Assembly (NCBI GenBank): GCA_020632095.1
Contig: JACKGF010000001.1
Coordinates: 669,366-733,365, forward strand
DNA: 64,000 bases
Origin: Candidatus Nomurabacteria bacterium
Lineage (GTDB): Bacteria > Patescibacteriota > Minisyncoccia > Phycocordibacterales > UBA918
Reading direction: 5' to 3'
The notes beneath the pieces are model-generated. The model was given only the letters and a program-made list of their open reading frames with translations. It did not search any database and was not told the origin of the DNA. The first letter of the stretch is position 1. Each line of letters opens with the position of its first letter. This document shows, one piece after another, positions 2,625-53,197 of this stretch. The position numbers were made by a program, and so were the translations under genes.

Positions 2625-4118
2625 CTAAAGAACTTCGTTGGCGTAATCTGCCAACCGCGAACGCTCACCACGCTGGAGAGTAATATGGCCGGCGTGCGCC
2701 CATCCCTTGAAGCGATCGACGACATAGGCGAGACCGGAGCTGCCCTCGGTAAGATAGGGCGTATCGATCTGGGCAATGTTGCCGAGACAGACCACCTTTG
2801 TCCTAGGACCAGCCCGCGTAATCAGCGTCTTCATCTGCTTCGGCGTCAGGTTCTGTGCTTCATCGATGATCAGGAATTTGTTGAGGAAGGTCCGGCCGCG
2901 CATGAAGTTGAGCGACTTGACCTTGATCCGGTTGCGAATCAGATCGTGTGTAGCCGCACGGCCCCAGTCGCCGGCATCGTTTTCGCTCTTGTTGAGTACC
3001 TCGAGGTTGTCTTCGAGGGCGCCCATCCACGGCCCCATCTTCTCTTCCTCGGTCCCCGGCAAGAAGCCGATATCCTCCCCCACCGACACAGTGACGCGAG
3101 TCATAATGATTTGACTGTATCTCTTAGAATCAAGGACCTGCGTCAGCGCTGCCGCCAAAGTGAGTAACGTCTTGCCAGTGCCAGCTTGACCAAGCAAGGT
3201 AACGAAATCAATTTCCGGATTCATCAGCAGATTCAACGCGAAATTTTGCTCACGGTTACGGGCATTGATTCCCCAGACATTGTTCTTGGGGTGAGTATAG
3301 TCGGTCAAAGTTGAAAGAACGGTTGCTCCGTCCGATACCTCACGCACCATTAACTGAAAAGGTGTTTCTCCTTCCATTACAAGGAACTGGTTGACTGGAT
3401 ACGGCGGGCGAGACGTTCCCTTAAAAGAGTACAAAACATGCCCATTGTCTCTGCCTGTCTCCATTCCTTCCGCGTACTCATTCCAAAACTCTGAACTCAA
3501 TTCACGTACGCCGGTGTACAAGTTATCGGTGTCTTCCAACACCTTGTCGTTAAAGTAATCCTGCGCTTGCAGCCCAAGCGTGCGGGCCTTGATCCGCATG
3601 TTGATGTCTTTGGACACCAGGATCACCAGACGTTTCGGATGCTGACGTTGCAGGTGGATAACGACCGCCAAAATCTGGTTGTCGGCTTTGGCCGTCGGTA
3701 GTCCTATTGGGAGTTCACTGGCGATTACCTCTGTCTGAAGGAAAAGGCGACCGTTGGCCATTCCACCAGACAGTCCGTTGAGTGCGATACCCTGGTCGAT
3801 GGCGTCGTCCGTACTGTTGACGATCTCGTCGAGTTTTCGTGTCGCCTCACGAACATTGCGGGCAACCTCAGACACTCCCTTCTTGTGATTATCCATTTCC
3901 TCAAGGGTCATAATCGGCAGAAAGACGTCGTGCTCTTCGAAGCGGTAGACACTCGTCGGGTCGTGCATCAAAACATTTGTATCGAGAACAAACAATTTCG
4001 GACCTACCACCTCAGCGACTGCAACATCAACGGGTTTTTTAGTGGCCACGGTAAAACCTCCATATTTAATCAAAAAGACCAGAGTACCACTCTGGGTACA
4101 GCTATGACTGTTATACAC
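2625..4118 (-). CDS. PIN domain + PhoH-like ATPase (YlaK/PhoH2 family)
   Basis: N-terminal PIN motif VLDTNVLMHDP; Walker A LLGQAGTGKTLLTLAAA; Walker B FLIIDEAQNL; GC-rich relative to surroundings; true start may be internal. Confidence 0.85.
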   Translation of the reverse strand: MYNSHSCTQSGTLVFLIKYGGFTVATKKPVDVAVAEVVGPKLFVLDTNVLMHDPTSVYRFEEHDVFLPIMTLEEMDNHKKGVSEVARNVREATRKLDEIVNSTDDAIDQGIALNGLSGGMANGRLFLQTEVIASELPIGLPTAKADNQILAVVIHLQRQHPKRLVILVSKDINMRIKARTLGLQAQDYFNDKVLEDTDNLYTGVRELSSEFWNEYAEGMETGRDNGHVLYSFKGTSRPPYPVNQFLVMEGETPFQLMVREVSDGATVLSTLTDYTHPKNNVWGINARNREQNFALNLLMNPEIDFVTLLGQAGTGKTLLTLAAALTQVLDSKRYSQIIMTRVTVSVGEDIGFLPGTEEEKMGPWMGALEDNLEVLNKSENDAGDWGRAATHDLIRNRIKVKSLNFMRGRTFLNKFLIIDEAQNLTPKQMKTLITRAGPRTKVVCLGNIAQIDTPYLTEGSSGLAYVVDRFKGWAHAGHITLQRGERSRLADYANEVL

Positions 4119-19636: not shown

Positions 19637-21685
19637 CTACAGATAACTCACTTCACCTGTCGAGCCGTTAATAGAAATGGAGGATTTTTCAACCAATGGT
19701 TTTTGGACACAAACTACTGGTAGACCAAGCTCGCGAGCGACAATGGCCATATGTGATAGTAAGCCACCTTGTTCGGTTACGATTCCCACTATTTTATCTA
19801 GATGTTGAGTGAGGTCGGGGGTCAAAAATTTTGTATACAAAATTTTTGACCCTGACACAGCATCCAAGTCCTCCACTCGCACCAACGACCCTTCCGTTAC
19901 TCCAGCCGAAAGGCCAATGCTTTCCTGACTAAGATTTTCATCCTGATAAATAAAACTAGCAATTCGCACTGGAAAACTAAACTTTTGATTATCTAAATAT
20001 TGAGACTCTCTTTGCTTGCAAACTTCAAGTGATATTGACTCACTTACTAATTCATCAACTGTAGCAAAATAAACCAGCTCTGACTCTTCTTTAAATACCA
20101 CTTCCCCATAATCTTCAACAGCACGCCGCACATGACTGATCAGACAAACACTAGCAATCCGCGCCTTTTCCCGTAAGGCCATATAATCTCTAGCTTTCTT
20201 TATGTAGGGAGACAATCCATGCCGACGCCACTCTGGTAACCGGTTCCACCAATTATCAAACTGTTTCGTATTTTCAATCACTGATTTATTACCTGTTTCT
20301 ACAAAATCAGATTTATCATCAATCGAAACCGAGTTACCAACTAGACTATCAGATTCATAAGTGAACTTATTTTGCTCAAAATTCGCCAACTGAGGTAAAT
20401 CGTAATTCAACAATCCTGATAAATTTGTCGCGTCATTTTTTAGCAGATGTCTCAAAGTAGTTAACGCCTTCTGTGAACGTAGGTTTACTTCAAAAATCAA
20501 AGCATAATTTTCTATAAAAAACTGCCATTTTTTCTCAAGAGAATCTGATTCATCTAAATTCACACCCAGCAACTCATCCACCCTTTGATTTAATTTTTGA
20601 TACGGCGCTAGAGACATAAAACTTAAAGCGACTTGATTGGCAAAAGTCACAAAGGATCCAGACAAACATTCAATTTTAGGTATTTGTGAATTAAACTTTT
20701 TATAACCCAATATCGGAAACAACGAACGTACTTCTGCCTGCTTATCGACAAACAATTCGTTTCCAAACATTCTCAATTGATCAGTAGCAAAATATTTTAC
20801 CCCACACTTCTTATAAGCTTCTTCAATCGGCCCCCCCTGCGCATACATAGCCTCAAGCATTGATAAAGCTAACGGACGTGGTTTAGTGAAGGTTTCTGCC
20901 AGCGTTGTTTGTTCAAAATAGTAATAATCTTCATTTTTTAACTCATTTTCCAAATATTTAATTCCCTGCCAATTTGCCTCCTTAACACTGGTGACTGGTC
21001 TGGTCTGCAAAATGTATACCCTTTCATCTTTAATCGCCCATTCGATATCCTGTGGCCACTGATAAATATCTTCTATTTCCCTAGCCAACTTGGCTAACTC
21101 TTCTGTATGTGAAAATTTAAATTTATGTATATATGAACGCTCAAATAAAAACTTTATTTGTTTAACACTCTCTCCTCCCACCACAGTTTCACCTACTCCA
21201 TGATTGTATTCCAATACCATCTCCCGTCCGCCGGTGGGATTTCGTGAAAAAATAACACCCGCTAGATCCGGGTCTATACATTCTTGAATAATTACTGAAA
21301 ATCTAAAATCATTACCTAGTTTTAACCTTGCATCATCCACTACTGACAGAATCGCTTCCGATAATGTTTCTTTAGTGACTTTAAGTATAGTTTTAAACTG
21401 ACCAGCGGAGGAACTGGTTTTTCCATCTTCTATCAATGCCGCCGATCGAACAGCGTAAAAATCAGTCGGTAACTTTTCATCAATCTCATTCTGGAGATTT
21501 ACCAGCAAATTATTATATTCAGACGATTTATTTACCTTAGCCTGAACTAAATCACCAACAACTTTAGTCGGAACCACTACAAACGCTGGAACATTAAAAC
21601 CGGCCGCGGTAAGCTCGCGTAAGCGTTGTGCCTTAGAGCCAATTTCAAACCCTATCTTTAGATCATTTTCGTTTAATAACAACAT
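19637..21685 (-). CDS. PEP-utilizing enzyme family protein with rifampin-phosphotransferase/PEP-synthase-like architecture (N-terminal ATP-grasp/PPDK_N, C-terminal phosphohistidine swivel domain)
   Basis: N-terminus KIGFEIGSKAQRLRELTAAGFNVPAFVVVP (PPDK_N-like); C-terminus GGLLSHMAIVARELGLPVVCV (PEP-utilizers His motif); no TIM-barrel domain. Confidence 0.7.
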   Translation of the reverse strand: MLLLNENDLKIGFEIGSKAQRLRELTAAGFNVPAFVVVPTKVVGDLVQAKVNKSSEYNNLLVNLQNEIDEKLPTDFYAVRSAALIEDGKTSSSAGQFKTILKVTKETLSEAILSVVDDARLKLGNDFRFSVIIQECIDPDLAGVIFSRNPTGGREMVLEYNHGVGETVVGGESVKQIKFLFERSYIHKFKFSHTEELAKLAREIEDIYQWPQDIEWAIKDERVYILQTRPVTSVKEANWQGIKYLENELKNEDYYYFEQTTLAETFTKPRPLALSMLEAMYAQGGPIEEAYKKCGVKYFATDQLRMFGNELFVDKQAEVRSLFPILGYKKFNSQIPKIECLSGSFVTFANQVALSFMSLAPYQKLNQRVDELLGVNLDESDSLEKKWQFFIENYALIFEVNLRSQKALTTLRHLLKNDATNLSGLLNYDLPQLANFEQNKFTYESDSLVGNSVSIDDKSDFVETGNKSVIENTKQFDNWWNRLPEWRRHGLSPYIKKARDYMALREKARIASVCLISHVRRAVEDYGEVVFKEESELVYFATVDELVSESISLEVCKQRESQYLDNQKFSFPVRIASFIYQDENLSQESIGLSAGVTEGSLVRVEDLDAVSGSKILYTKFLTPDLTQHLDKIVGIVTEQGGLLSHMAIVARELGLPVVCVQKPLVEKSSISINGSTGEVSYL

Positions 21686-28794: not shown

Positions 28795-29241
28795 TTACTC
28801 AGAATACTGCTCCAGAAATTGCTTAACTTCCACAAACATTGACTTGGTATCTTGATAATCCAATCTTTCAGCTGCTTCTTCTATAGTGTACCAACCAGCT
28901 TCCTTAACTTCAGACGTTTGTAGGTTTATTTTTGTATCACTGATAATTCCTAAATAAAAAATCACCTCCTTATTGATTCGTACCCCATCAAAAGAGAAAA
29001 CGTACTTGAGAGAAAATGTTGGTTCAGGAAGTATTCTGTCGGCTGTCATTCCCACCTCCTCAAACAATTCCCTTTTAGCCGTTTCAATTTGTGTCTCACT
29101 ATTTTCTGAATGACCCTTCGGAAAGATCCAATATGAGTTGTTTCCAATTCGACTAAATTGATGAATGAGAAAGACCTTCCATTTTCCCTCCACTTTAGTT
29201 ATCGGAATAATCCCGAACGATTTATCTGTTTTAGATTCCAT
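28795..29241 (-). CDS. NUDIX hydrolase
   Basis: Nudix box GHSENSETQIETAKRELFEEVGM. Confidence 0.75.
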   Translation of the reverse strand: MESKTDKSFGIIPITKVEGKWKVFLIHQFSRIGNNSYWIFPKGHSENSETQIETAKRELFEEVGMTADRILPEPTFSLKYVFSFDGVRINKEVIFYLGIISDTKINLQTSEVKEAGWYTIEEAAERLDYQDTKSMFVEVKQFLEQYSE

Positions 29242-29256
29242 AGAGGTTTAGTATAA

Positions 29257-29328
29257 CAGTTTGCTTGTTTCGTGGACACAAAACACCGGCAAAGGCCGGT
29301 GTCTGTTTTGTGTCCACGACTGGAGTTG
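29257..29328. repeat. 72-nt direct repeat (copy 1) comprising a tRNA-Leu 3'-end fragment plus a long bulged hairpin
   Basis: Identical to 29448-29519; contains gtccacgactggagttg (reverse complement of the tRNA-Leu T-loop and acceptor 3' strand) and hairpin GTGGACACAAAACACCGGC-AAAG-GCCGGTGTCTGTTTTGTGTCCAC. Confidence 0.85.
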
Positions 29329-29447
29329 GTCACAAGTTACTAAGTATAATTGTTCACTTCGTTCCAATTCTACTAAGTACTTTCGACCCCGCCTCGACTG
29401 CAGCATAGCTGCATGTCTGCGGCCTTCAACTCCAGACACAAGCAAAG

Positions 29448-29519
29448 CAGTTTGCTTGTTTCGTGGACACAAAACACCGGCAAAGGCCGGTGTCTGTTTT
29501 GTGTCCACGACTGGAGTTG
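29448..29519. repeat. 72-nt direct repeat (copy 2), overlapping the genuine 3' end of tRNA-Leu
   Basis: Exact duplicate of 29257-29328. Confidence 0.85.
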
Positions 29520-29585
29520 AACCAGCATGAGGAAACCCTCACTACCCCCTCAAGGTAGCGCGTCTACCAATTTCGCCACGTGGAC
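29502..29585 (-). tRNA. tRNA-Leu (anticodon GAG), type II with long variable arm; CCA not encoded
   Basis: Hand fold of the reverse complement: acceptor GTCCACG/CGTGGAC, D-arm GCG-AAATTGGTAGA-CGC, anticodon stem CTACC/GGTAG with loop TTGAGGG, variable stem GAGG-GTTT-CCTC, T-arm GCTGG-TTCAACT-CCAGT, discriminator A. Confidence 0.85.
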
Positions 29586-29706
29586 ATAATTTGAGGTCGG
29601 GTCATTATGCCTGATGTTACTTGGTAATTCAAGAGACGACAATACTTTAGCAATGTAAAAGGCCGTCGCATAGCGTCGGCCTTTTACTAATTATTGAGAA
29701 TAATTA

Positions 29707-35311: not shown

Positions 35312-35384
35312 GCGCGATTAGCTCAGTTGGTAGAGCAGCTCGTTTACACCGAGAAGGTCAGGAGTTCAAGTCTCTTATCGCGCA
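35312..35384 (+). tRNA. tRNA-Val (anticodon TAC)
   Basis: Acceptor GCGCGAT/ATCGCGC, D-arm GCTC-AGTTGGTA-GAGC, anticodon loop TTTACAC, T-arm AGGAG-TTCAAGT-CTCTT, discriminator A. Confidence 0.9.
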
Positions 35385-35391
35385 CACAGGT

Positions 35392-35444
35392 AAAACAAAG
35401 ACGCAATTCTTTTTTAGAATTGCGTCTTTGTTTTAGAAACTGAA
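35392..35444 (+). terminator. Strong hairpin directly downstream of tRNA-Val (candidate intrinsic terminator)
   Basis: AAAACAAAGACGCAATTCT-TTTT-AGAATTGCGTCTTTGTTTT, perfect 19-bp stem flanked by A/T runs. Confidence 0.6.
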
Positions 35445-35502
35445 CTGCTTCAGTTTCGTGCCTGTGTGCGAGGCGGAGACATATTTTCCTCCCCTTTCCT
35501 AG

Positions 35503-35577
35503 GGAGGGAAATAGTCGAGCCGGGGTAGCGAACACTTAGTAGAATTGGAACGTAGTGAACAATTATACTTAGTGATT
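35503..35577 (+). repeat. Approximately 72-nt core element shared (about 85% identity, inverted) with 29329-29400 next to tRNA-Leu
   Basis: gtcgagccggggtagcgaacacttagtagaattggaacgtagtgaacaattatacttagtgattcgtgacc aligns with the reverse complement of gtcacaagttactaagtataattgttcacttcgttccaattctactaagtactttcgaccccgcctcgac. Confidence 0.8.
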
Positions 35578-35683
35578 CGTGACCACTAAAATCCCCAACC
35601 CACATGCAAACTGCTTTGCTTCCGGAGAGACTTGAAAAGAGCGAATTTATCGCACGGAGCGGAGCGAGTATGATTTGAGCGCC

Positions 35684-35748
35684 GGGTGAGAAAGTCTGGG
35701 AGACTTTTGCAAGAGGTTGCCCGCTCGCAAGAGCGACAACCTGAACAG
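35684..35748 (+). repeat. Copy B of the structured-RNA-like motif family
   Basis: GGGTGAGAAAGTCTGGGAGACTTTTGCAAGAGGTTGCCCGCTCGCAAGAGCGACAACCTGAACAG; inner stem AAAGTC/GACTTT; hairpin GGTTG-CCGCTC-GCAA-GAGCG-CAACC. Confidence 0.55.
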
Positions 35749-35820
35749 AATTCGTAGAATTCGAGTAGTACAATATTTTGGAGTTCGGAGAACGAACAAA
35801 ATATTGATACGAAGGTGACC

Positions 35821-35834
35821 AAGTCTCTTATCGC
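35821..35834 (+). repeat. Duplicated tRNA-Val 3'-end fragment (aagtctcttatcgc), about 440 bp downstream of the tRNA
   Basis: gaaggtgaccAAGTCTCTTATCGCagacag matches tRNA-Val 35357-35383 (gaaggtcaggagttcAAGTCTCTTATCGCgcaca). Confidence 0.6.
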
Positions 35835-35906
35835 AGACAGACACTTTACAATACAATATATTCGTTATACTGTTCGACTAGCTGAAAGTTCACTTGGAGA
35901 TTTACC

Positions 35907-50432: not shown

Positions 50433-50507
50433 GCCCCTATAGTTTAATGGATAAAACGAGAGGCTTCTATCCTTTTGATGTGGGTTCGATTCCTACTGGG
50501 GGCACCA
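50433..50507 (+). tRNA. tRNA-Arg (anticodon TCT), CCA encoded
   Basis: Acceptor GCCCCTA/TGGGGGC, D-arm GTTT-AATGGATA-AAAC, anticodon stem AGAGG/CCTTT with loop CTTCTAT, T-arm GTGGG-TTCGATT-CCTAC, discriminator A + CCA. Confidence 0.9.
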
Positions 50508-50598
50508 CGTAGCGAGACCTATCGAGAGGGGTTAATACCCCACTAATCTCGATAAGTCTAGCGAAACAATAAAACCACTCGATTGAGTGGTTTTATTG

Positions 50599-52109: not shown

Positions 52110-53130
52110 CTTTCTCAGATCCGGCTCCCTCCAGCTACCCCTCAAGTAGGACAGATTGCTCATAATAATACTCACTCGAAATCCTAAAATCAATACACTC
52201 TTTCGGTCGGTCATTCAAGAAGGCATGAATCTCATTCAATTCTTCTTGAGTAACAGACGCAATGTCTCTCCGCTTTGGAACAAAGCATCTAATCCAACGA
52301 TTAGTATTCTCTACCAGTCCCTTCTCCCAAGAATGATAAGGGTGGCAGAAATAGATTGGAGCCTGTATGATTTGTTCTAGTTCCGTCCAGTGACGGAATG
52401 CAATGTCGTTGTCGGTGGTGATACTCTTGACTATAATATTGCTAAACATTTTAGAGAACGCTGCACTGATTGTGTGGCGTTTTCTATTGGGTAACTGACG
52501 TACCAAGCTGTATTTAGTTAAACGGTCAGTAGCCACTAGAAGTACGTATGGACTGTACTTAGAGACAATGAAGTCTAGTTCATAGTGACCTAGCTCATGG
52601 CTACCAAGAGGACGAATATCTATATATTTACGGCCATCATCAGCTGGTTTATGTGTGGTCCGTTTCGGACCACTTTTCTTTTTGTTCCAACGCCAGAATA
52701 GTCGATATTCCAGACCACGACTTTCTATGAACTTGTATATAGCTTTGGCGGAACAGGTAACACCGAGCTCTCGTTTGAGATGTCCACTGATTTGTTTAGG
52801 GGTCCACTTCTTCTCCAATTTGTCTTCTACGAAACGAATCAGGAAACTATCTAGAGCCACCTTGAGACACTGACGTTTAGCCCGCCAACGACGTTGACTT
52901 ACTTTTAGTTGGGCTTGCTTGGCGTCATAGACTCCATTAACCCTATTCTTCTTTAGTTCCTGACTGATGGTGTTGGGACTACGTTTGAGGAAGATGGCTA
53001 TTTCTCTGATCAAACTCCCTGCGTTCAATAACTTTTCAATTACGAAACGCTCCTCAAATTGTATGTGTCTGTATGTTTTCATAGACAGCTAATTTACTTT
53101 ATAGCTGTCCTACTTCAAAGGTGTCTGGGG
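52110..53130 (-). mobile_element. IS30-family insertion sequence (approximate boundaries)
   Basis: Transposase gene flanked by imperfect terminal inverted repeats containing GTAGGACAG (52126-52136) and CTGTCCTAC (about 53113-53123). Confidence 0.55.
52135..53082 (-). CDS. IS30-family DDE transposase
   Basis: N-terminal HTH; integrase core; C-terminal HPYHSWEKGLVENTNRWIRCFVPK parallels the IS30 ..[23 protein letters not shown] motif. Confidence 0.85.
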   Translation of the reverse strand: MKTYRHIQFEERFVIEKLLNAGSLIREIAIFLKRSPNTISQELKKNRVNGVYDAKQAQLKVSQRRWRAKRQCLKVALDSFLIRFVEDKLEKKWTPKQISGHLKRELGVTCSAKAIYKFIESRGLEYRLFWRWNKKKSGPKRTTHKPADDGRKYIDIRPLGSHELGHYELDFIVSKYSPYVLLVATDRLTKYSLVRQLPNRKRHTISAAFSKMFSNIIVKSITTDNDIAFRHWTELEQIIQAPIYFCHPYHSWEKGLVENTNRWIRCFVPKRRDIASVTQEELNEIHAFLNDRPKECIDFRISSEYYYEQSVLLEG

Positions 53131-53197
53131 GTTTTTTGAAAAGAGTCTTCTTTTTCTCACAAAACAGAGAAATTCAACTCACATAAGGAATAAAGCG

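Follow-up and report, generated by a model that had tools for sequence, protein, structure and literature searches.

In the T-loop of the tRNA-Leu(GAG) gene in a 64,000-nt stretch of a Candidatus Nomurabacteria genome (hereafter the window; contig JACKGF010000001.1 of assembly GCA_020632095.1), which contains four tRNA genes, lies a 191-nt non-coding element that carries its own copy of the tRNA 3' end. It belongs to a well-supported and apparently undescribed family of small structured elements that stand at the 3' ends of tRNA genes and of ftsZ. In the published literature outside subscription journals, we found no description of the family or of its core sequence. How the elements move is a proposal: we lean towards a non-autonomous, guide-bearing element that would act as a folded single strand, with a 12-nt antisense stretch selecting the target and the conserved core serving as the scaffold for an activity in trans.

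The original prediction reported an exact 72-nt direct repeat (29257-29328 and 29448-29519), and a repeat search of the window recovered it inside a 79-nt repeat of 96% identity (29250-29328 and 29441-29519). The repeat does include the tRNA-Leu 3' end and a hairpin, as was claimed; however, the tRNA part measures 18-19 nt instead of 17, the bulged, terminator-like hairpin occupies 29461-29510, and the further flank is 13 nt instead of about 10. The spacer (29329-29447) is 119 bp long and non-coding, as described, being crossed only by spurious overlapping open reading frames (ORFs). These 119 bp are a real insert but not the whole element, which is 191 nt and comprises one repeat copy plus the 119 bp. 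Its boundaries were set by the repeat and by the register rule presented below. The parts of the locus are as follows, in which hp denotes a hairpin:

29501-29585 (Rfam: 29502-29585), minus strand: complete tRNA-Leu(GAG), found by ARAGORN and the Rfam tRNA model (50.6 bits)
29510-29521, minus strand: 12-nt target TTCAACTCCAGT, T-loop plus T-stem, complementary to the antisense stretch (11/12 pairs)
29329-29519, minus strand: whole mini-element, 191 nt, CAACTCC...CTTGTGAC
29448-29519, minus strand: left copy of the 72-nt repeat, with the element-borne tRNA 3' end, hp1 and the left arm of hp2 (repeat search)
29461-29510, minus strand: hp1, a bulged hairpin pairing the tRNA acceptor 3' strand (inverted repeats, folding)
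29438-29459, minus strand: hp2, a perfect 9-bp hairpin with loop CTGC (folding)
29425-29436, minus strand: AS-a, the 12-nt antisense ('guide') TCTGGAGTTGAA, between hp2 and P2 (complementarity)
29391-29423, minus strand: P2, with helix GCC/GGC, internal loop GCA/GA, helix GAC/GTC and a variable apical hairpin (covariation in helices 1 and 2)
29328-29388, minus strand: P3, a conserved irregular hairpin of 61 nt, apical part GAATTGGAACGNAGTGAACAA (covariance model (CM), covariation)
29257-29328, minus strand: right repeat copy, with the displaced native tRNA-Leu 3' end, the native terminator and the flank up to the promoter region of a NUDIX gene (repeat search)

The insertion point is the T-loop of the tRNA gene, so that the tRNA-Leu(GAG) sequence from C56 on is the element-borne copy. 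The left junction falls between target positions 2 and 3 (TT|C); at the right junction the target sequence reappears, starting with its position 3. The last base of the element's terminal ...GTGAC is 29329, and the displaced copy starts at 29328. The core of hp1 (29467-29504) is a stem like that of an intrinsic terminator, followed by a T-run, and a second copy of hp1 lies at 29270-29319. The flank downstream of the right repeat copy, TTATACTAAA, is common to two related loci, L064 and L069 (the loci compared here carry L numbers).

Relatives were collected with the exact 21-mer GAATTGGAACGNAGTGAACAA, scanned in species-representative genomes and in metagenomes. The genomes gave 24 matched loci, 19 of them true relatives, mostly in metagenome-assembled genomes (MAGs) of Patescibacteria (bins of Kaiserbacteria, Minisyncoccia, Paceibacterota, Saccharibacteria and Parcubacteria); the other five, and some of the metagenome matches, were discarded as coding or chance matches. 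With 39 further loci from metagenomes, 42 distinct instances were left overall after de-duplication and removal of chance matches, and a CM search of the related loci revealed additional copies, often in tandem. No match to the 21-mer was found in viral contigs, nor to the unit by blastn in phage and plasmid collections. True copies also occur in L013, L020 and L021, on contigs binned as Flavobacteriaceae (Patiriisocius), Azotimanducaceae and Oligoflexia, which are either mis-binned Patescibacteria DNA or a sign of spread beyond the phylum. A weak CM match within the window (19810-19859, 18 bits), produced by a GGGTCAAAAATTT...AAAATTTTTGACCCC hairpin, is probably a plain terminator that does not belong to the family.

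The core was expected to recur next to other tRNA genes, and it does. Most loci have a co-oriented tRNA gene 100-270 nt upstream, representing 14 tRNA species (Glu, Lys, Val, Ser, Gly, Phe, Ile, Ala, Arg, Met, Thr, Trp, Asp and Leu). While tRNA 3' ends are indeed targeted, they are not the sole targets, since ftsZ is the upstream gene in L010, L014 and L032/L043. On the sense strand of the host gene, the parts stand in a common order: gene-end copy, hp1, hp2, 12-nt antisense, the P2 and P3 core ending in GTGAC, and the displaced native end. Units measure 190-250 nt, with a conserved core of about 110 nt, and hp2 varies in sequence with its structure maintained. In L069 (3120-3335), an element with a variant core apparently sits within the rplS terminator hairpin (AAAAGGCCGG|...GACCCC|CGGCCTTTT), a locus where no convincing antisense match was found; the rplS terminator is probably also a target there, and terminator loops may be used as targets too.

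In about half of the loci, GTGAC is followed immediately by a repeat of the upstream gene's 3' end. Such repeats were seen for tRNA-Ser, Phe, Gly, Ala, Met, Lys and Leu and for ftsZ, examples being CGAGTCCCACACCCTCCGCA in L008, CGAGCCCGGCCCCAAGCAC in L016 and a 37-nt ftsZ tail in L010; the flanking repeats range from 3 to 79 nt across loci. The repeat was originally read as an attL/attR-like target duplication, a reading contradicted by L014. Both ftsZ tails of that locus encode VPAFLRRSKLK*, with 8 of the 11 codons differing, all synonymously. An insertion-made duplication is thereby excluded, and one copy arrived with the element, which brings its own gene end. The same element-borne ftsZ tail, together with the sequence that follows it, recurs within a tandem array in L032. 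Because the element carries the displaced gene end, the host gene stays intact. The displaced copies decay (L011, L015 and, at 81%, the Val locus of the window) and the gene-attached copy is still functional; the leftover tRNA 3' fragments could mislead annotation. The 72-nt repeat of the window is a gene-end replacement in a young insertion, in which the carried copy includes the terminator.

Core structure and antisense register

P3 is the best conserved structure to examine by covariation, with 33 distinct sequences at hand. In these, 95.5% of the cells are paired, eight pairs show compensatory changes, and a G.U pair is kept in 31 of the 33. None of 500 shuffles reached the observed values, and slid partners gave 20-48% paired. 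Across the family, P2 has a GGA/GA internal loop flanked by two helices of 3 bp each, and an apical hairpin that varies; the helices occur as GCC/GGC, GGC/GCC, GAC/GTC, GTC/GAC and AGC/GCT. Because the 5' strand of P2 was placed by complementarity, its percentage of pairing is partly by construction, which leaves the diversity of pair types unaffected. Together, P2 and P3 have 14 covarying pairs. A K-turn at the P2 internal loop is doubtful, since its strand lengths do not suit the canonical form, and a contact of the hp2 loop (CUGC) with the loop of P2 was rejected, as the two do not covary.

The core structure is strand-specific. For the Leu copy, the P3 CM gave 99.1 bits on the sense strand and 21.7 bits on the other strand, and for the first of two elements at tRNA-Val (Val element 1, see below) 90.9 and 16 bits. 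The minimum free energy (MFE) fold of the Leu unit comprises P1 (with hp1 and hp2), P2 and P3 (z = -13, DNA parameters), and that of Val element 1 reproduces P1, hp1, hp2, P2 and P3 (z = -12, RNA parameters); the wider region of 351 nt at 29240-29590 gave z = -10.4 (RNA parameters). In the predicted fold, the left junction lies 2 bp from the P2-side end of P1, and the right junction at the foot of P3, such that both host flanks leave from the centre of a three-way junction. In Rfam 15, searched with the whole window at gathering thresholds and with both loci and five related loci at E<=10, only tRNAs and chance matches were found. The core is a well-supported structured motif and a suitable addition to RNA family libraries.

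A separate architecture-mate was seen in another Nomurabacteria species, at the tRNA-Leu(GAG) gene of L068 (3291-3440). The layout is terminator, hairpin, antisense and displaced copy (AAGTCCTCTCCTAGGCACA), and the core is only about 68 nt long, looks unrelated and ends CTGTAAGTTTC. This suggests several core families with one architecture.

About 12 nt consistently separate hp2 and P2 across loci. In 19 of 31 loci, this stretch pairs with the 3' end of the upstream gene at at least 11 of 12 positions, against a cross-locus null of 8.7%. Moreover, the trinucleotide after GTGAC equals target positions 3-5 in 15 of the 18 well-defined loci (chance, 1/64 per locus), which places the junction between positions 2 and 3 of the paired target; two of the 18 are off by one. 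This register rule covers all three insertion classes. First, in the T-loop class (TT|CRA...; window Leu and Val element 2), 18-20 nt of the tRNA end are carried. Second, in the tRNA-end class (CG|CAC, CG|GAC...; Val element 1, L030 and L075), the junction lies 3-5 nt before the end. Third, the ftsZ class, as read from the sequence, has CG|CCGTACC in L010 and TG|CAGTTCC in L014. The last two bases of AS-a pair with host bases that differ among targets (TT, CG, GG, AT, TG and GT), and an identical antisense with an identical target, GGCACCAAGG, is found at tRNA-Arg in L030 and at tRNA-Leu in L075.

Nested, variable and empty sites

The spacer at tRNA-Leu was said to have an inverted homologue beside tRNA-Val, followed by a duplicated tRNA-Val 3' fragment. 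Both observations hold: 29327-29399 matches 35513-35585 in inverted orientation (86% over 73 nt), and the fragment is present at 35813-35839 (81% over 27 nt). A 40-mer is common to the two cores, with no chance match in 100 shuffles. The Val locus contains two elements:

35312-35385, plus strand: tRNA-Val(TAC) (ARAGORN, Rfam)
35383-35583, plus strand: Val element 1, 201 nt, standard core (CM 90.9 bits; fold z = -12)
35391-35435, 35436-35457, 35459-35470, 35472-35521 and 35524-35584, plus strand: hp1, hp2, AS-a, P2 and P3 of Val element 1, respectively
35584-35819, plus strand: Val element 2, long-core variant, partly decayed (homology to the long-core elements of L014, L032 and L063)
35604-35621, 35624-35636 and 35637-35819, plus strand: hp2', antisense to the tRNA-Val T-arm and core (end GGTGAC) of Val element 2, respectively
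35820-35839, plus strand: displaced native tRNA-Val 3' end CAAGTCTCTTATCGCAGACA, directly after the GTGAC of Val element 2

Val element 1 sits 3 nt before the tRNA end (CG|CAC) at register 2, repeats CAC at 35584-35586, and has an AS-a that pairs with 35381-35392 at 12 of 12 positions. The elements are nested: Val element 2 entered the T-loop first, and Val element 1 later entered the tRNA copy that element 2 had supplied. The 14-nt fragment first noticed at this locus belongs to the older, long-core element 2.

The long-core variant (window 35637-35819; L014, L032 and L063) has an extra domain of about 100 nt between P2 and P3, laid out as GGGTGAGAA-hairpin-GCAAGAGGTTGCC-hairpin-GCGACAACCTGAACAG-CTGTAAG, and may be the ancestral, fuller form of the core.

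Independent assemblies bear on whether these structures are real. L071, from an ENA assembly, reproduces the Val locus at 734 of 753 positions. All 19 differences lie inside 35625-35753 (2719-2847 of L071), in the antisense and 5' core of Val element 2, and tRNA-Val, Val element 1 and the flanks are identical; the cluster could reflect local decay or replacement by another allele. L064, from an NCBI MAG (GCA_020632175.1) whose L19 is 99% identical, has two intact cores and one decayed unit at tRNA-Leu where the window has one, and one of the intact units is the exact 191-nt unit of the window, in tandem. With both loci recovered in this way, the concern that the repeat might be an assembly artefact can be dismissed. 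In close strains, several short contigs stop inside these repeat-bearing intergenic regions or at their margins, and the elements probably add to MAG contig breaks beside such genes.

The tRNA-Leu(GAG) locus holds different family members in other Nomurabacteria. There is a decayed 3'-end-type element in L069 (core at 3556-3664), a 3'-end-type element in L075, and in L068 the short-core relative with its own displaced copy. A comparison with a site lacking the insert, proposed at the outset as a check, is provided by the window itself:

50433-50507, plus strand: tRNA-Arg(TCT), unoccupied homologue of the L030 site (conserved flanks)

The window site is empty, and its homologue in L030 has an insert of about 190 nt after GGGGGCAC. 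The trailer of this tRNA gene (window 50511-50570; 518-575 of L030 as oriented, AGCGAGACCTATCGAGAGGGGTTAATACCCCACTAATCTCGATAAGTCTAGCG) is about 95% conserved, with T-arms that differ between the two species. It can form a long hairpin and may be a small structured element.

How the elements may move

The elements encode no protein, and no recombinase recurs beside about 46-60 loci, where the only recurrent neighbours are syntenic housekeeping genes such as ftsZ, ValRS and a SpoU-like gene. By Pfam, the 36 larger ORFs of the window include no integrase, Y1 HUH transposase, DEDD transposase or reverse transcriptase (RT). The search for a cognate integrase, suggested with the original prediction, was thus negative in the elements, their recurrent neighbours and these 36 ORFs, the only transposase being IS30-like. 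The latter belongs to an IS30-family insertion sequence at 52128-53131 (transposase ORF 52135-53082, minus strand; HTH_38 and a weak rve match), whose 27-nt terminal inverted repeats (52128-52154 and 53105-53131) are unrelated to the ends of the mini-elements.

Also in the window, the ribosomal protein L19 gene (29707-30294, minus strand) has an acidic C-terminal extension of about 75 residues rich in Ala, Glu and Val; public annotations place its start 14 codons later.

An antisense at a fixed register, together with a strand-specific covarying core, points away from a classical integrase and att mechanism. The earlier proposal of a family of tiny integrase-less elements at gene 3' ends, flanked by a duplicated gene end, stands, while the att mechanism attached to it is not favoured. 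In the explanation we lean towards, the unit, as a single strand of RNA or single-stranded DNA (ssDNA), would fold into the three-way junction. AS-a would pair with the left junction, that is, with two host bases and the 5' end of the element, and the base of P3 would hold the right junction. By this base pairing AS-a would choose the target, and strand transfer would take place at the fixed register, between target positions 2 and 3. The activity in trans may be an HUH-type single-strand transposase or an RNA-guided recombinase, for which the conserved core would be the recognition scaffold; an IS200/IS605-like ssDNA mechanism and an RNA-guided recombinase cannot be separated within this explanation.

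Several points weigh against it. All instances were collected with one exact 21-mer, which biases the sample towards one subfamily. With no mobilising protein among the elements, their neighbours and the 36 window ORFs, the action in trans is something we infer. No sigma-70-like promoter was found before the core, and the terminator-like hp1 stands between the core and the host gene; an RNA form is therefore not assured and would need read-through. In 12 of the 31 loci the antisense match is below 11/12, some of these being automatic mis-placements of P2 or decayed copies. In tRNA-end insertions, AS-a pairs mostly with the element's own 5' end, and its role could be solely structural, in closing helix P1, rather than in target search. 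Finally, the copy-number change in L064 could have arisen by unequal crossing-over between the 72-nt repeats, without transposition.

Taken further, guidance by pairing would define a new class of programmable elements. In such a class, a core of about 110 nt and a 12-nt guide would fix insertion at single-base register, and the element would move as a folded single strand, either as guide and scaffold of an RNA- or ssDNA-guided strand transferase or by a ribozyme-like cleavage and ligation of its own, homing to any gene 3' end that it carries. We advance this extension tentatively, as possible rather than probable. If true, it could amount to a new system of guided DNA insertion whose cis component is very small and programmable. 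Complementarity at a fixed register between an internal 12 nt and the junction is what one would take as the signature of nucleic-acid-guided insertion, here in an element encoding structure only. Patescibacteria have tiny genomes and, to our knowledge, few recognised mobile elements, yet members of this family have spread across the phylum to many tRNA genes, to ftsZ and probably to a terminator, with no host gene disrupted.

We consider classical site-specific integration unlikely. By that account the elements would be integrase-less remnants or satellites of tRNA-targeting islands, similar to cis-mobilizable elements (CIMEs), recombined in duplex form by an integrase (tyrosine or serine type) whose gene lies elsewhere, with the core as an arm or accessory binding region and the antisense merely part of a terminator-like structure. 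It would explain the gene 3'-end direct repeats that flank the element, the restored gene and the tandem accretion at one site. It also suits the sites used, as the T-loop and the extreme 3' end of tRNA genes are reportedly the classical integrase sublocations. However, no integrase was found in the elements, recurrently nearby in about 60 loci or in the larger ORFs of the window. The targets (T-loops, tRNA ends and ftsZ tails) have no common sequence, and each matches the antisense of its own element at a fixed register. Furthermore, protein-binding sites in duplex DNA would not need hairpin covariation, a conserved G.U pair or strand asymmetry, and repeat lengths from 3 to 79 nt do not fit.

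To an intron-like ribozyme we give a slim chance. The unit would then be a small self-splicing or reverse-splicing RNA, with AS-a as the internal guide (P1 and P10) and P2 and P3 as a novel catalytic core, and the carried gene end would keep the element harmless even when unspliced. The topology does resemble the P1, internal guide sequence and P10 of group I introns, as the guide pairs with two 5'-exon bases and the beginning of the intron, and can also pair with the beginning of the 3' exon, which is identical. Both junctions lie at the centre of the three-way junction, unpaired nucleotides are highly conserved, and insertions are always co-oriented and downstream of highly expressed genes. 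The phylum, too, is rich in group I introns and without group II introns (PMC13011429). Against these, no ribozyme or intron model of Rfam 15 matched even at E<=10, the core is just about 110 nt, and there is neither a U.G pair at the junction nor a terminal G. The host genes are complete unspliced, and decay is seen in displaced copies (L011, L015 and window Val). The core has a terminator upstream, and fixing an RNA insertion in DNA would need an RT, of which none was seen among the larger ORFs of the window or as a recurrent neighbour of the elements.

That the locus is not mobile at all, but a local tandem duplication, an assembly artefact or a host small-RNA gene adjoining tRNA genes, is hardly credible: the Leu repeat copies do not differ, as would be expected of a recent duplication, and contigs of related strains break at this locus, yet independent assemblies reproduce the structure, the core accompanies, in many lineages, 14 or more different tRNA genes and ftsZ with a matching gene-end copy after each, the synonymous re-encoding of the ftsZ tail excludes in-situ duplication, and homologous sites occur both empty and occupied.

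Other candidates were rejected. A MITE, a miniature transposable element bounded by inverted repeats, does not fit, as the ends CAACTCC... and ...CTTGTGAC have no terminal inverted repeat, the ends of the window's IS30-like element are unrelated, and there is no target-site duplication of fixed length (3 to 79 nt, with synonymous differences in L014). Group I and II introns and the hammerhead, hatchet and twister ribozymes gave no model match or signature bases. For an omega-RNA of TnpB or IscB, with the core as scaffold and the displaced copy as guide, the guide would target the identical intact first copy, and no nuclease gene is present.

Comparison with known systems

CIMEs, derived from streptococcal integrative and conjugative or mobilizable elements (ICE/IME), and other integrative elements that target tRNA genes share several features with the mini-elements: insertion into the 3' part of a gene, a replacement gene end, flanking direct repeats, tandem accretion at one site and, for the non-autonomous forms, dependence on others. 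However, they measure kilobases, as opposed to 190-250 nt here, where no related autonomous element was seen. They also differ from the mini-elements in the latter's strand-specific conserved structure, 12-nt antisense at a fixed register and targets without a common sequence.

In folded single-strand att sites, such as the attP(+) of phage CTX with XerCD and the attC of integrons, sense and antisense segments form a duplex that mimics the target. The order seen in the mini-elements (sense, loop, antisense, the rest, displaced target) is likewise that which one strand exchange and then replication would produce. Whereas CTX attP(+) and integron attC use a single fixed site (dif and attI) recognised by the recombinase, the mini-elements have diverse targets, each matching its own antisense.

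Group I introns are common in Patescibacteria tRNA genes, where they occupy the anticodon loop (PMC13011429). The mini-elements share with them the phylum, the kind of target gene and the P1/internal-guide/P10-like topology across the junction. Unlike these introns, they have no P3-P9 catalytic core and no match to RF00028. Their TT|C junction pairs with AA, with no U.G, and the element ends in C, not G. In addition, the gene is not interrupted, the tRNAs being complete by ARAGORN and Rfam, and the insertion lies in the T-loop or at the 3' end rather than in the anticodon loop.

IS200/IS605 elements and their non-autonomous derivatives (PATEs, and REPINs moved by RAYTs) are also non-coding in the derived forms, hairpin-rich and strand-specific; they have subterminal hairpins and lack terminal inverted repeats. 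For IS608, recognition of the target and of the cleavage sites at both ends is reportedly by pairing with short guides at the feet of the subterminal hairpins. The mini-elements have a similar feature, since the left junction pairs with AS-a beside hp2 and P2, and the GAC of the right end with a GTC at the foot of P3. Yet their guide pairs by Watson-Crick over 12 nt, for the most part with the element's own 5' end, against 4 nt in IS200/IS605; they have no fixed tetra- or pentanucleotide target, they carry a gene-end copy, and no Y1 transposase was found among the window ORFs tested. A selfish module consisting of an RNA gene only and using a transposase in trans has a precedent in ssr9, a small-RNA module that moves with the ISPpu9 transposase (PMC12288879).

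With the bridge (seek) RNAs of IS110 and IS1111, the mini-elements have in common a structured non-coding RNA gene at the element end and, as proposed here, a target set by pairing. In bridge RNAs, split guides for the target and the donor are carried by two internal loops, and the core is 2 nt. The mini-elements instead have one contiguous antisense between hp2 and P2, and neither the internal loop of P2 nor that of P3 is programmable, both being conserved. Neither did we find a DEDD transposase in the elements, in the neighbouring ORFs of about 60 loci or among the window ORFs tested, nor any sequence or Rfam similarity. The mini-elements lack at least one defining feature of each of CIMEs, MITEs, IS200/IS605, IS110 and group I introns; they work most like guided single-strand or bridge-type elements and are topologically like an intron.

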